Source: Promethearchaeia archaeon (GTDB taxonomy: Archaea; Asgardarchaeota; Lokiarchaeia; Sigyniarchaeales; SOKP01). Taken from it: DNA of 23,638 nt. Positions 10,596 to 15,813 of this stretch are shown here, in pieces. Location of the stretch: contig JAHQWG010000038.1 in NCBI GenBank assembly GCA_029856045.1, positions 1 through 23,638 on the forward strand, read 5' to 3'. The translations under genes and the position numbers were made by a program. Below the pieces are notes generated by a model that saw nothing but the letters and a program-made list of their open reading frames with translations, was not told the origin of the DNA and did not search any database. The first letter of the stretch is position 1. Each line of letters opens with the position of its first letter.

Positions 10596-12881
10596 TTAAA
10601 AAATTTTAAAATCTTCTTCCCTTAATTTATCATATTCGTCAAATATTAAACCAATTTTGTTTAGAAGTTTTTTAACAATTTTTTGTTTACCTTTATGAGC
10701 CTGCATTGTATCTAAGATAATTTGTTCAATATCCGCCTCATATTCACCAGTTATCGCAGAAATTTTCTTAAATTCTTTTTGACTGATACCTAAGGTATCC
10801 AATTCACTTAAAATTTGAGTCATATTATCTTCTAATTTTTGAGTGGCACTTTTAGCTTTCATACTTTTATCATGCAATGACTCAATAGTTTCAAGATACT
10901 TTTTATCTTCTTCAGAAAGCTCTATCTCTTGAATATTATAACCCTCAATACGCTCTTTTAAAAGTAATTCCACACGATTGTATATTGCTATTGCTCTTTT
11001 AACATCTAATAACACAGCGAATAAGTCGTATTTTCTTTTTAAACGTGCTTCACATATCCACAAATAACCATCATCATATAGAGTTTTAAGTTTACCTAGG
11101 CTACTAATTTCCCACTCATCAATTGATAACATTAATTGGGTTTTATCTATCTCTATCTCTTTTCTTCGCTCTTGTGAGATATTTTCTTTAGATAATTCTT
11201 TTTGAACCTTTTTATAGTCTTGTTTAAGGAGAATTGCTTTTAATTTGAGAATATGAGCCTTATTTTCAATATTGGTAATACTTCTCCTTTCACCCCTTAT
11301 CTCACAAAAGGAAAAAATATCTATTGCCTCATTTAATAAAGATATAAATTTTTTTACATTTGATTCAAAGTAGAATCTTAAATCATATACTTTCTGCAAT
11401 GCTCGATCAATTTGAATTTCTAATTCAAATATATAGTCAATTAATGATGTTTGTTTTCTTTCTGATAATATTTTTGATTTTTCATCCATATCCTTAACTA
11501 GAGATTTAAGAGATAACGCCCAACAAATTCCTCCAGGAATCCAAAATAATATTGCGATAATCATCATATTATAGACACTTCCTAATAATTGTATTAAAGT
11601 AAAGGAAATAAGGAGAGTGATACCTTTTCCAGTTTGTTCTGAAAGACGAAATAGGGATGCAGTTGTACCTTTATGCTCGGGTAAATTAACATCAAACATT
11701 ACAGCATTTCTATTTGCAATGGGTCCCGCACTTAAAGTTGATCCAATCAATGCAAAAATGAAGAAAATTATATAGGAAGGATAGTTAACAAATATTGCTC
11801 CAACAGCAATAAAAATATACTGGCTTGTTTGTTCAACTGGAATTGGTTCGGGAATATTTAAAGAAGTTACAAATTCAGAATTTAAAGGCCTTAACATTAA
11901 AAATGCAATTAGACATAATGGAACTGTTGTAATCATACAAAAAACCGCCAATCTAACACGGTTTTTACGATTCCTTCTAAATAATGTATCGCTTAACCTT
12001 GAAAGGAGCATATTTCCTAAAATATATCCAATCCCAACTAAACCTCCAAAAATTGTTGCTGTTTGAATACGTATAGCGGCTGGCAATACATTAAAAAAAG
12101 ACTGGGATAACATAGAAATTAAAAAATATACAATTATCGTTCCAGGGATAATTGCGAAAAATCCTTGTATTATTAGATATTTATTTGTATTTTTTTGTAT
12201 AATTTGTGTTAATTCACTTTTAGAGATCTTATAAACATATTCTAATTCATATTGGGATAAATCTAATAATTCTGCCTCGCTGGCACCTCGTTGTGGAAAG
12301 TCTACAAAAAATAATATGAAAGTAACTATAATGCTAATTAATGAGAGAAGGATGAAGGGAAATTTCCACCCAAATCCTAATATGTTTAAAGGTCCTAAAA
12401 ATGAAGACAAACCCTGACCAACACCGTTAGATACACTAGAAAGAATAGCAATTGTTCCAAACCAACCAGAACGTTCATCTGGTGGAATAATATCTGATAT
12501 AATAGAGTATCCTACTGGTAAAACACACCCCAAACCAAAACCACTTAAAATTCTGGAAAAAATTAATACCCCAAAATATTCACTTGTTCCAGTAAGAAAC
12601 ATTCCAATCGTCCAAGCAAAAGCCCCAGCTAATAAAATTTTTGACCTATTTATTCTATCAGTGTAATAACCCCAAAGTAGGGCAAAAAGAGCACTAACCA
12701 GCACAAAAAAAGCATCTGGAATTGCAACAAGTGAATCATCAATGTTAAAATATTCTTTTATTACACCATAACTTGGTATGAGCATATTCGCACAAGCAAC
12801 GGAAATAAATAAAAGTATCATAATTAAAATTACGGGAATTAATTGCGAACCCCTAATTTTAGTAATAGGAATATGAGTCAC
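10596..12881 (-). CDS. MFS transporter (spinster-like) fused to a ~300-aa soluble helical C-terminal domain
   Basis: MFS motif A-like WGYYTDRINR, SRILSGFG, ISDIIPPDERSG, and second-half LSDTLFRRN; about 12 TM segments, then a charged helical tail. Confidence 0.85.
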   Translation of the reverse strand: MTHIPITKIRGSQLIPVILIMILLFISVACANMLIPSYGVIKEYFNIDDSLVAIPDAFFVLVSALFALLWGYYTDRINRSKILLAGAFAWTIGMFLTGTSEYFGVLIFSRILSGFGLGCVLPVGYSIISDIIPPDERSGWFGTIAILSSVSNGVGQGLSSFLGPLNILGFGWKFPFILLSLISIIVTFILFFVDFPQRGASEAELLDLSQYELEYVYKISKSELTQIIQKNTNKYLIIQGFFAIIPGTIIVYFLISMLSQSFFNVLPAAIRIQTATIFGGLVGIGYILGNMLLSRLSDTLFRRNRKNRVRLAVFCMITTVPLCLIAFLMLRPLNSEFVTSLNIPEPIPVEQTSQYIFIAVGAIFVNYPSYIIFFIFALIGSTLSAGPIANRNAVMFDVNLPEHKGTTASLFRLSEQTGKGITLLISFTLIQLLGSVYNMMIIAILFWIPGGICWALSLKSLVKDMDEKSKILSERKQTSLIDYIFELEIQIDRALQKVYDLRFYFESNVKKFISLLNEAIDIFSFCEIRGERRSITNIENKAHILKLKAILLKQDYKKVQKELSKENISQERRKEIEIDKTQLMLSIDEWEISSLGKLKTLYDDGYLWICEARLKRKYDLFAVLLDVKRAIAIYNRVELLLKERIEGYNIQEIELSEEDKKYLETIESLHDKSMKAKSATQKLEDNMTQILSELDTLGISQKEFKKISAITGEYEADIEQIILDTMQAHKGKQKIVKKLLNKIGLIFDEYDKLREEDFKIF

Positions 12882-13241
12882 CTATTTGTGTCAAAGAAAT
12901 ATTAGAAAAAAAAATGATTATTAGTAATTAAAAAGAAGACCTATTTAAAGAATTAAATGAAAAAGGTGTAATTAAAACAGACCTATATTGGTAGTGGCCA
13001 ATTAAAAAATTTGGAGATAAAATCGATTTTTAAAAACAGAATCGAATCTTAGAATTAATAGTTTTCTGTTAAAATAGAGCTAAATGTAAATATCGAATGT
13101 AATTATCTTTATATTAAGAAAATTGATTAATTTGTTTCGATTTTATATTTATGCATTGTGAGTTTTGAAAAAATTTATTTGAAATAAATAACAATTATAG
13201 TTAAATCTAAAAAGAGAATTAATTATTTAAAGTCTATTTCT

Positions 13242-13313
13242 GGGCCTGTGGATTAGTGGAAGATCGCTTGCTTGGCATGCAAGAGGTCACGGGTTCAATT
13301 CCCGTCAGGTCCA
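13242..13313 (+). tRNA. tRNA-Ala(GGC), CCA not encoded
   Basis: Acceptor GGGCCTG/CAGGTCC with the G3:U70 Ala identity pair; anticodon arm CTTGC-TTGGCAT-GCAAG; T-arm ACGGG-TTCAATT-CCCGT; discriminator A; followed by a T-tract. Confidence 0.96.
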
Positions 13314-13320
13314 TCTTTTT

Positions 13321-13341
13321 GTAATATCACTGTGATATTAC
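13321..13341. repeat. Perfect inverted repeat GTAATATCAC-T-GTGATATTAC
   Basis: 10-bp arms with a 1-nt spacer, flanked by T-tracts, immediately downstream of the tRNA. Confidence 0.85.
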
Positions 13342-13536
13342 TTTTTAGCTAAAACAATAAATTAATTATTAACTATTAAATATAAAATATCTATAAAAAA
13401 AGAGTTGAATGAAATCAACTAAATTTTTTATTTAAATAAGAATAAAATATGATCTGTACATCCTAAAAAATTATAGATTATAAATTTAGGAGAGACATAA
13501 TTTTTAAAAATAATAAAGTTAAATATAGAATGAGCA

Positions 13537-14514
13537 ATGCTAGAAGAAGTAAATTCACACCGAAATATAATTGATTATATTTTTCTATTACGTTTTATGA
13601 AGTTCTCTAAATCAGGTCTTATTAAGTTATTTCAGAGCCCGACAATGGAGATCTCTCGCTTTAAATCCTTGAATAAAGATAAGTTAACAAAGATCCTGCT
13701 ATATAAAAAGAAGCAAAGTTTAGATCATTTCAATAAAATTTCAAATCTATATGATTTCAATCCAAATGATAAGGAATACTCTGAATTGGAAAAAATGGTA
13801 AAATATTGCATACAGAGAAATATTAAAATTTTAACCCCTTTTGATAAAAATGTTCCTAAATTGTTTCAAATATTGCAGCCAGAAAAGCGCGATTTAATCT
13901 TTATCAAGGGACAAATTGCTGATATTGATTTAAAATCTTATTCTATTTGCGGATCTCGAACACCAACAAAAGATGCAATGATTAAAACCCACCAAATTGC
14001 GGGATTTTTAGCTAAGTATAAATTCACTCTTATAAATGGATTTGCTAAAGGTATAGATATTGAGGCTTTTTTAGGAGCTCATAAGCAAAATGGGAGGTAT
14101 ATAGGTATCTTAGCATCCGGTGTTGAGAATGTTTATCCTTCTGATAATAGGCAATATGAACAATTGGTTATTAAAAATGGCGCACTAATATCACAAAGCT
14201 TTTTATGGAATCGCGTCACTAAATTCACGCTACAAATGAGAAACCGACTTTCTGCACAATTATCATTAGGTAGCATCTTTATTGAAGGCAGTTATAAATC
14301 GGGAACGAAATGGCAGTATAAGTTTGCAAAAGAAGCTAAGCGTTTAGTATTTTATTTAGAGCCAAAAAATTGGGATCATGAAAATGCACATGTTTTAAAG
14401 ATTGTTAAGGATGGGGGCGGAATTGAAATAAAAAATGATCTAAGTAATATCAAAAATATTGTTGATGTTCTAGAAAAGGAGAATTTTAAGAGGATGGAGG
14501 TTTTTAACGATTAA
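13537..14514 (+). CDS. dprA: DprA/Smf-like (SLOG-fold) DNA-processing protein; candidate ShosA-like antitoxin
   Basis: SICGSRTPT, INGFAKGIDIEA, ILASG, GALISQ, RNRLSAQLS, EG..KSGT motifs. Lacks the C-terminal winged-helix extension of many competence DprA proteins. Confidence 0.88.
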   Translation: MLEEVNSHRNIIDYIFLLRFMKFSKSGLIKLFQSPTMEISRFKSLNKDKLTKILLYKKKQSLDHFNKISNLYDFNPNDKEYSELEKMVKYCIQRNIKILTPFDKNVPKLFQILQPEKRDLIFIKGQIADIDLKSYSICGSRTPTKDAMIKTHQIAGFLAKYKFTLINGFAKGIDIEAFLGAHKQNGRYIGILASGVENVYPSDNRQYEQLVIKNGALISQSFLWNRVTKFTLQMRNRLSAQLSLGSIFIEGSYKSGTKWQYKFAKEAKRLVFYLEPKNWDHENAHVLKIVKDGGGIEIKNDLSNIKNIVDVLEKENFKRMEVFND

Positions 14515-15229
14515 GCAAATTAAATTTAATTTTGGAATATTTACATATAAAGAAATTATTATTAATTCAATTCCACTTATTAAAGGGAGATTCACTCTAA
14601 ATATAACACCTAACCGTCCAGATGAATTTAGAAGACCTTTCTGGTTTTATGATTTAACATTAAAACTTAAAATTGATGATGTTATTTCTTTGGGAGCATA
14701 TTATCCTCAAAGGAATTTTGATAATGATTCAAAAAACGCTCCTAATCTAAAATATCCCGCATTATCGAACATAGTGTTCTATTCTAAATCCGGACCATTG
14801 CATAGAGAGCCAAAGATTTTTATAAGAACATCTAGAGAGCAACAATTGAGAATAATTTCAAATTTTTATGCTAATTATTTAAAATCTATAATTGGATCAT
14901 TAAATTATGATGAAATAATTCCTGTACCTGCTAAATTAGAGTATTCTTTTAACTCAGTTGAAATAATTAGTAAGGAATTTAGCAATATTTTCAATATTCC
15001 AATGAATTTAAGTAGGATAAATCGAACATCTGATTATGAAAAGGAATACTCTATAAATTGCGATAATAATGATTTAGAACAGATAAGAATATTATTAATA
15101 GATGATATTATTACCGACGGAAAAACTAAGGAAAAGATCTGCTTTAGATTGAATGAAAAGGGTTGTAATGATATAGATATGATAACTCTCGCAAGAACAG
15201 ATCATAATATTTACGAGTATGATGGGTAA
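14507..15229 (+). CDS. Type I phosphoribosyltransferase-domain protein (ComF/ShosT-like); probable non-canonical start (ACG 14507 or ATT 14510)
   Basis: IIPVPAK and PRPP-binding RILLIDDIITDGKT, C-terminal ITLART. The frame is open upstream of the track's TTG (14690) back to the dprA stop, where GGAGGT (14496-14501) precedes ACG-ATT. Confidence 0.8.
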   Translation, partial: TIKQIKFNFGIFTYKEIIINSIPLIKGRFTLNITPNRPDEFRRPFWFYDLTLKLKIDDVISLGAYYPQRNFDNDSKNAPNLKYPALSNIVFYSKSGPLHREPKIFIRTSREQQLRIISNFYANYLKSIIGSLNYDEIIPVPAKLEYSFNSVEIISKEFSNIFNIPMNLSRINRTSDYEKEYSINCDNNDLEQIRILLIDDIITDGKTKEKICFRLNEKGCNDIDMITLARTDHNIYEYDG

Positions 15230-15715
15230 AGATCTAATTTTATAGCTTAATGAAAATCATTTAATATCACTCATTGGGTTTTAAGATAATAGACTTTTAG
15301 AGATTTTAGAAATAGTATTAATTTTCTCAACAGCTGAGAGAGATTAAGATATATCATATTTCTGTCGGAATTTAACAGGAGCAATATAAATTTTTATTTT
15401 ATTCTTTTATAAAAACCCGAGAAAATTTTGCATTCATAATTTCTCTTTTTTTGTTTTGGGAATCTCTATCGCTTTATATATTTTCATGTATGCGAGTTCA
15501 CGATCGCCTTTAATGCCATTTATTAATTTCAGATAATCAATATGCAGGTTAGGTGATTGAAAATTTTTAATATTTTTCTCTCTTTGCTCATATATTTTAT
15601 AGCTCCTCAATTATCTAGAGGCACAATCTAATATATTTTTTTTCAGCTGACGAAATTGAACGAAGAAAGTAATTTTTCTCCTTTAGCAATACAAATGATA
15701 AAAAAACAGTTTTTT

Positions 15716-15734
15716 CTATGTCGTAACGACATAG
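15716..15734. repeat. Perfect inverted repeat CTATGTCGT-A-ACGACATAG
   Basis: 9-bp arms with a 1-nt spacer, ending 8 nt before the att-like repeat. Confidence 0.85.
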
Positions 15735-15742
15735 GTTTGGGC

Positions 15743-15759
15743 CAATTCCCATCAGGTCC
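15743..15759 (+). repeat. attR-like duplication of the tRNA-Ala 3' end
   Basis: CAATTCCCATCAGGTCC versus tRNA CAATTCCCGTCAGGTCC; followed by GCCA and a T-tract. Confidence 0.75.
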
Positions 15760-15813
15760 GCCATTTTTAATTACATTATCTTCGCCTTTATCAGATTTTT
15801 TTCCAAAATAAAT

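Follow-up and report, generated by a model that had tools for sequence, protein, structure and literature searches.

An islet of ~2.4 kb at a tRNA-Ala gene of a Promethearchaeia archaeon carries two overlapping genes, one for a DprA-like protein and one for a phosphoribosyltransferase (PRTase), which we interpret, with a probability of roughly 0.55, as a ShosTA-like toxin-antitoxin or abortive-infection cassette. The stretch of DNA analyzed, referred to here as the window, comprises positions 1 to 23,638 (23,638 nucleotides) of contig JAHQWG010000038.1. The pair is mobile, patchy, and strictly linked, its two genes decay asymmetrically, and ComEC was not found in the genome; together, these observations fit a toxin-antitoxin module better than a DNA-uptake system. 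ShosTA itself is not new to these organisms, as DefenseFinder surveys list it among the systems that are more common in Asgardarchaeota than in other prokaryotes (PMC11291487) and it has been reported as widespread in archaea (bioRxiv 10.1101/2024.10.26.620412). A preliminary description of the window, made from the letters alone, therefore overrated the novelty of the pair. What is specific to this locus is the filled/empty-site proof of insertion, the cassette-like spread, a zinc-finger-less ComF-derived toxin candidate, and a recurrent ATT start that overlaps the dprA stop.

Insertion, spread, and decay of the gene pair

The integration target is the sole tRNA gene of the window, a tRNA-Ala(GGC) at 13241-13315 on the plus strand (ARAGORN; Rfam tRNA, 67.4 bits). 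Its last 18 nt (CAATTCCCGTCAGGTCCA; 13296-13313, plus strand) form the attL core, from which a fainter resemblance to attR runs on to ~13329. One further copy of this 18-mer, with 2 mismatches, is present at 15743-15760, where shuffled sequence gives an expectation of 0.02 copies by chance. This degenerate copy of the tRNA-Ala 3′ end (plus strand) is the attR; beyond it lies the flank that adjoins the tRNA in empty sites. Empty sites were sought with a 7.3-kb query spanning the site against 4 genomes of the same genus. In three of these congeners (G001, G002, and G004), a junction alignment places the tRNA directly against the equivalent of window position 15761 onward, both flanks are collinear, adjacent, and 87-96% identical, and the window sequence from ~13330 to 15742 has no counterpart. 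These empty sites establish ~13316-15760 as a true insertion of ~2.4 kb at the tRNA 3′ end, and the duplicated tRNA end around an islet that the preliminary description had reported is borne out by the second 18-mer and the three congeners alike. The locus offers a clean natural comparison between filled and empty sites. No recombinase-sized open reading frame (ORF) lies between the att repeats, no joint skipping the islet was found in the contigs of four DNA runs, and no RNA datasets containing the islet were listed. The islet is present at salt-marsh and marine-sediment sites. Searched against 41 genomes, the DNA of the islet's right arm matched elsewhere only over 54 nt, on another contig of the window's own genome (G000), whose completeness by marker genes is 100%.

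The pair had been described as cargo of a tRNA-integrated islet, and whether it is instead core and syntenic among related genomes was looked at. It is neither, and is instead accessory and mobile: among 41 related genomes, 5 have the PRTase, and 0 of 4 congeners of this Lokiarchaeon do. Copies of a mobile unit of ~1.85-1.95 kb, with a common left end and at 94.7-99.1% identity, occupy at least four unrelated contexts (L006/L032, L007, L029, and L030); the neighbors at the related loci vary from housekeeping genes to genes of unknown function. Similarity of the window to these mobile cassettes is confined to 13423-15251, with 83% identity to the L006 and L007 copies from 13423 (blastn; alignment A3). 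At a further locus (L008/L034), the DprA-PRTase pair lies 220 nt downstream of a tRNA-Gly, for whose 3′ end no attR-like copy was found. One could imagine that the ~1.9-kb unit is an integrase-less element that spreads itself, with DprA loading the archaeal recombinase RadA on an incoming strand and recombination proceeding via short homologies. Such an element would explain near-identical, sharp-ended cassettes in unrelated contexts without a recombinase gene, and we nonetheless regard it as a long shot. Directly upstream of the L029 copy is a gene (107-2425) for a 773-aa SMC/AAA_15-like ATPase with a weak match to LmuB (Lamassu).

Pairing of the two genes is strict. DprA is found directly upstream of the PRTase wherever upstream DNA is present in genome and metagenome loci, with the exceptions of a divergent subgroup and one decayed fragment. 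DprA itself is patchy in the archaeal order. It comes in two classes, and at the loci inspected a PRTase gene, or what is left of one, follows the dprA of either class. When the genes decay, they do so unevenly. In G001 and G002, dprA is intact and only ~50 codons of the class-B PRTase, the partner of the second DprA class, are left; in G010, an intact dprA is accompanied by a PRTase with 2 TAA stops. An intact PRTase beside a broken dprA was not seen in any case. Both window genes are under purifying selection, with ratios of nonsynonymous to synonymous substitution (dN/dS) of 0.11-0.15 for dprA and 0.27-0.40 for the PRTase.

Several related loci are worth recording in their own right. The second DprA class (205-215 bits to PF02481) is represented by L021 (G009), L022 (G011), L018 (G001), and L020 (G002), where a zinc-finger ComF-like PRTase (class B) follows. 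In the divergent PRTase subgroup (L038, 991-1740; TTG start, MKISKIEFDYG...), what precedes the PRTase is not dprA but an unrelated ORF, longer than 256 aa and without a Pfam match. Similar pairs of DprA and ComF-family genes are also carried by plasmids of Streptomyces and by a megaplasmid of Halopiger, the latter pair beside an integrase. A Streptomyces anulatus plasmid (L050) has genes annotated as 'ComF family protein' and 'DprA' that are adjacent or overlapping, and on Halopiger xanaduensis pHALXA01 (L049) genes with the same annotations come directly after a site-specific integrase. A DprA match was found on 26 Streptomyces plasmids.

The DprA-like protein and the PRTase

The dprA-like gene (13537-14514, plus strand) encodes a 325-aa protein, the presumed antitoxin, with an N-terminal helical SAM-like domain and a Rossmann/SLOG domain. 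A conserved upstream region of the cassette (13423-13536, plus strand), which makes up the left portion of the mobile 1.85-1.95 kb unit, is the presumed promoter. The protein matches Pfam DNA_processg_A (PF02481) at 2e-36 (125.5 bits vs a cutoff of 29.6) and the SLOG family LDcluster4 at 5e-7, and falls below the cutoff of the NCBIfam dprA equivalog TIGR00732 (119 vs 191 bits). Its AlphaFold2 (AF2) model has a predicted local distance difference test (pLDDT) score of 90.4 and shares the full two-domain fold of the competence DprA/Smf proteins of Rhodopseudomonas palustris (3MAJ, Z 28.1) and Streptococcus pneumoniae (3UQZ, Z 27.9) over 279-283 residues in VIA-align. Unlike these proteins, the window DprA is non-core. 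The SLOG fold is also common to the nucleotide-binding proteins LOG, PpnN, and ThsA, which match the model at Z 13-19, in keeping with the Pfam hit. Together with the intact PRPP (phosphoribosyl pyrophosphate) loop of the PRTase, this similarity is what favors a nucleotide-signaling or salvage pair, in which the PRTase would make a modified nucleotide that the SLOG domain binds or processes for the purpose of regulation instead of killing. However, the window protein is a complete two-domain DprA that single-stranded DNA (ssDNA)-binding DprAs match far better (Z 28 vs 13-19), and a mobile, patchy distribution is unlike that of housekeeping metabolism. We consider this explanation quite improbable.

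The PRTase gene (14510-15229, plus strand, ~239 aa) encodes the presumed toxin and lies in a frame that is open from 14474 to 15229. It is co-oriented with dprA and overlaps it, with ATTAA at 14510-14514 joining start and stop. Candidate starts are ACG 14507, the position given in the preliminary description, and ATT 14510, which overlaps the dprA stop (TAA, 14512-14514) through its last T. ACG is non-canonical, and from the sequence ATT appears the likelier start. The ATG ACT AAG of homologues corresponds to ACG ATT AAG in the window, and AGG ATT is found at the same place in three other lineages (L002, where the PRTase is broken, L033, and L008/L034). A TGA stop right before the ATT in L008/L034 means that the conserved N-terminus there can begin only at or near that ATT. 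Contigs from three public runs (two studies) show the ACG without differences, one run possibly being the source sample. Homologues are ~240 aa long and 98-100% of the longer PRTase reading is covered. We take the PRTase to be a protein of ~239 aa with a weak start that is probably coupled to translation of dprA. The downstream position of the PRTase and this near-cognate coupled start would keep toxin output under antitoxin output, and the recurrent stop-overlapping start may set the toxin dose.

Two other arrangements of the coding sequence were rejected. The first ATG, GTG, or TTG in the PRTase frame is TTG 14690, from which a protein of 179 aa would be made. This TTG is the codon for a nearly invariant Leu in the ISLG motif, and the 60 codons upstream of it are conserved (dN/dS 0.41-0.51) and confidently modeled as beta-strands (pLDDT 86-91). 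A DprA-PRTase fusion by +1 frameshift has no support from homologues, as no fused form was present among the best 150 matches of a search without a length limit.

The PRTase has an intact PRPP loop (LLIDDIITDGKT), and D210, D211, T214, and T218 of this loop do not vary across the family alignment (A1). Pfam matches, the reading frame, and this alignment uphold the original observation of overlapping, co-oriented DprA and PRTase genes with an intact loop. The PRTase match to Pfam Pribosyltran is under the cutoff (20.5 bits), and the best NCBIfam family is comF (TIGR00201) at 28 bits vs a cutoff of 233. The PRTase family is small, as a profile search of 1.84 billion representative proteins returned just 13 clusters at E<=1e-30. 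A profile scan found no PRTase relatives in viral contigs, and the profile matched PDB sequences only at the PRPP loop of many PRTases, which is non-discriminating. The AF2 model (pLDDT 84.7) shows that the N-terminal region outside recognized domains consists of ~60-75 aa of beta-strands and not of the ~100 unrecognized residues proposed at first.

The absence of accessory domains that had been noted at the outset was also found here: the PRTase has no Pfam match to a HAD domain, and no Cys motif for a zinc finger occurs in the window PRTase or its family (A1). Relatives from the same order (class-B PRTases; P0060; P0128 from a Lokiarchaeota metagenome-assembled genome) have a CxxC...CxxC segment between 'YDL' and 'ISLG', and in the window family the segment between these motifs is ~8 residues without cysteines. 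This replacement indicates that the PRTase is ComF-derived and has lost its zinc finger, with HAD likewise not found.

A proposed toxin-antitoxin function and its alternatives

ShosTA is a bacterial type IV toxin-antitoxin defense system (PMC11961720, PMC12961424). The toxin, ShosT (424 aa), has a pyrophosphatase and a PRTase domain, with the N-terminal domain of marginal importance (PMC11961720, PMC12961424), and the DD pair of its PRPP loop is essential for toxicity (PMC11961720). The antitoxin, ShosA, is a DprA-like ssDNA binder that acts via RecA and does not bind ShosT (PMC11961720, PMC12961424). A DprA and PRTase pair of P2-like prophage hotspots guards against T7 and lambda (PMC9122126). 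The window pair resembles the ShosTA of Escherichia coli APEC O1 (8ZVA-8ZVD, 9VZO, 9W2P/Q) as an overlapping two-gene operon on mobile DNA whose products are a DprA-like protein of ~325 aa and a type-I PRTase bearing DD in its PRPP loop. E. coli ShosA aligns with the window DprA model over 281 residues (Z 24.5), and the ShosT PRTase domain aligns with the window PRTase model over 171 residues (Z 9.1). In contrast to ShosT, the window PRTase does not have the N-terminal HAD/pyrophosphatase domain (ShosT residues 1-164) and instead has its own N-terminus of ~60 aa of beta-strands. The recombinase partner would also differ, being RecA for E. coli ShosA and RadA for the window DprA.

A shorter form of the system is found in the P2-like phage SopEPhi, where orf14 (193 aa) and orf15 (325 aa) lie by portal gene Q in a cos-proximal hotspot and score 60 bits with the PADLOC ShosT model and 238 bits with the ShosA model, respectively. 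Like the window PRTase, the orf14 product is short and single-domain, has neither a HAD domain nor a zinc finger, and is encoded by a gene overlapping one for a 325-aa DprA-like protein. The two PRTases have similar local motifs: G-x-Y-x-P close to where the core begins, PVP/VVP, LLIDD, and an N-x-YE tail at the C-terminus. They differ in their match to the ShosT model (60 vs 17.6 bits for the window PRTase), in gene order (T then A in SopEPhi), and in the bacterial, phage-borne setting of orf14, which reaches only 16.5 bits on the window-family profile. Since the SopEPhi form matches the ShosT model without HAD, this domain may not be defining for ShosTA.

Several observations weigh against a ShosTA-like toxin-antitoxin cassette. 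The gene order is A then T in the window and the reverse in E. coli ShosTA and SopEPhi. The match of the PRTase to the ShosT model (PDLC03962) is weak (17.6 bits, E 6.5e-4, positions 48-214 of 237), and the same model gives housekeeping PRTases of the window's genome 19-25 bits and has matches in 14 of 14 control genomes. The ShosA model (PDLC03961) is also non-specific, with 138 bits for the window DprA vs 207 for the housekeeping Smf of Enterobacter and matches in 10 control genomes. In terms of structure, the DprA model is slightly nearer to competence DprAs (Z 28) than to ShosA (8zva, Z 24.5), and the PRTase model is nearest to Helicobacter pylori ComFC (7p0h; Z 12.9, root-mean-square deviation 3.5, 166 residues), with PurF next (Z 9.2) and ShosT (8zvd) at Z 9.1. 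The next sequence tier of the PRTase, at ~50-70 bits, consists of ComF-family proteins. The window flanks are not a defense island, and the related loci provide one weak defense-like neighbor, an LmuB-like ATPase at 35 bits (PADLOC/Pfam). Finally, the non-canonical start could be the sign of a window PRTase that is weakly expressed or in decay. The PADLOC models lack the specificity to prove ShosTA membership. Of the initial proposal of an archaeal ShosTA variant, the mobile accessory pair has held up, whereas the assignment to ShosTA is not supported in the form given, and both proteins are structurally nearer to ComFC and DprA. Prediction of a complex between DprA and the PRTase gave a score of 0.00, which is no evidence either way.

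If the pair is a ShosTA-like cassette, the PRTase would use PRPP and disturb nucleotide metabolism, leading to replication damage. The DprA-like protein would bind ssDNA and recruit RadA so that the damage is repaired, a route by which the toxin could be neutralized without being bound. Once a virus shuts off host expression or floods the cell with its ssDNA, the protection afforded by DprA would be gone, and the infected cell would be killed or arrested. Should the DprA-like protein act via RadA, a recombination-based antitoxin mechanism would be common to bacteria and the archaeal relatives of eukaryotes.

The structural results keep a different role in play, that of a DprA/ComFC-type module for handling ssDNA. 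Here, a PRTase-fold protein would bind ssDNA or nucleotides and pass ssDNA on to a RadA-loading DprA; carried by mobile DNA, such a module would aid the recombination or establishment of incoming DNA and would not be a toxin-antitoxin system. ComFC of H. pylori (7P0H), a member of the ComF/GntX family that works with DprA, shares with the window PRTase a PRPP loop of the form DDIIT-G-T and is its best structural match. Binding of ssDNA by ComFC is known, as is its interaction with DprA in S. pneumoniae and Campylobacter jejuni (PMC9005727). This biochemistry, the nearness of both window proteins to competence proteins (ComFC, Z 12.9; DprA, Z 28), and the ComF family as the nearest sequence relatives of the PRTase make ssDNA handling a live rival. 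However, the zinc finger of ComFC is needed for membrane association and DNA internalization (PMC9005727), and the window PRTase does not have this 4-Cys element, reaches only 28 of the 233 bits set as the cutoff for TIGR00201, and resides in a mobile, accessory context. ComEC (PF03772) was not found in the window's genome, and no ComFA partner was found for the window PRTase. The pair is accessory and patchy and lies outside any competence regulon, and the PRTase has been lost repeatedly with dprA retained. We judge ssDNA handling to be unlikely on balance. The DNA-uptake module that had been offered as the original alternative is weakened by the missing ComEC and is kept in this ssDNA-handling form. 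On the favored toxin-antitoxin reading, the window PRTase is a compact candidate toxin that links the competence protein ComFC with the defense toxin ShosT.

The same toxin-antitoxin biochemistry could also serve a purely selfish purpose, stabilizing the carrier element as an addiction module with no antiviral role. Cassette-like mobility, the plasmid-borne pairs of other lineages, and the lack of a clear defense-island context in the window agree with such a module. On the other hand, homologous bacterial systems protect against phages (PMC9122126, PMC11961720), and the islet no longer encodes anything for replication or transfer that could be stabilized. Pure addiction seems to us a little more doubtful still than ssDNA handling, and defense by a ShosTA-like cassette is the reading that we prefer.

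Remaining features of the islet and window

Beyond the gene pair, the islet contains two perfect palindromes and a gene fragment. The first palindrome, GTAATATCAC-T-GTGATATTAC (10+1+10 nt; 13321-13341, either strand), lies just inside attL with T-runs at its sides and a DNA fold of -5.7 kcal/mol (z -7.1). It is islet-specific and is not present in the empty sites. The second, CTATGTCGT-A-ACGACATAG (9+1+9 nt; 15716-15734, either strand), lies just inside attR, again with T-runs at its sides, and has a DNA fold of -6.6 kcal/mol (z -7.4). The two palindromes differ and are not terminal inverted repeats of one another; they may be terminators or recombinase sites. The minus strand has a 58-aa ORF at 15434-15610 that is similar to NYN-domain proteins in the stretch of their residues 21-60, with 43% identity across 40 aa (pairwise E 4e-7). 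Its full-length relatives are 169-175 aa long, occur in two related genomes, and match PF01936. Judging from this similarity, the ORF is probably what is left, after decay, of a third gene that the original element carried. DprA and the PRTase had been called the only clear cargo of the islet, to which the NYN fragment and the two subterminal palindromes are now to be added. These additional features suggest a larger integrated element that has since decayed. The cassette may have arrived inside this element when it integrated at the tRNA-Ala, with the integrase since gone.

Outside the islet, the window flanks encode an MFS transporter, a 2TM protein, and a PadR protein. The left neighbor of the tRNA (10596-12881, minus strand) encodes a 761-aa protein in which an MFS transporter domain is fused to a long, charged C-terminal region of ~300 aa.

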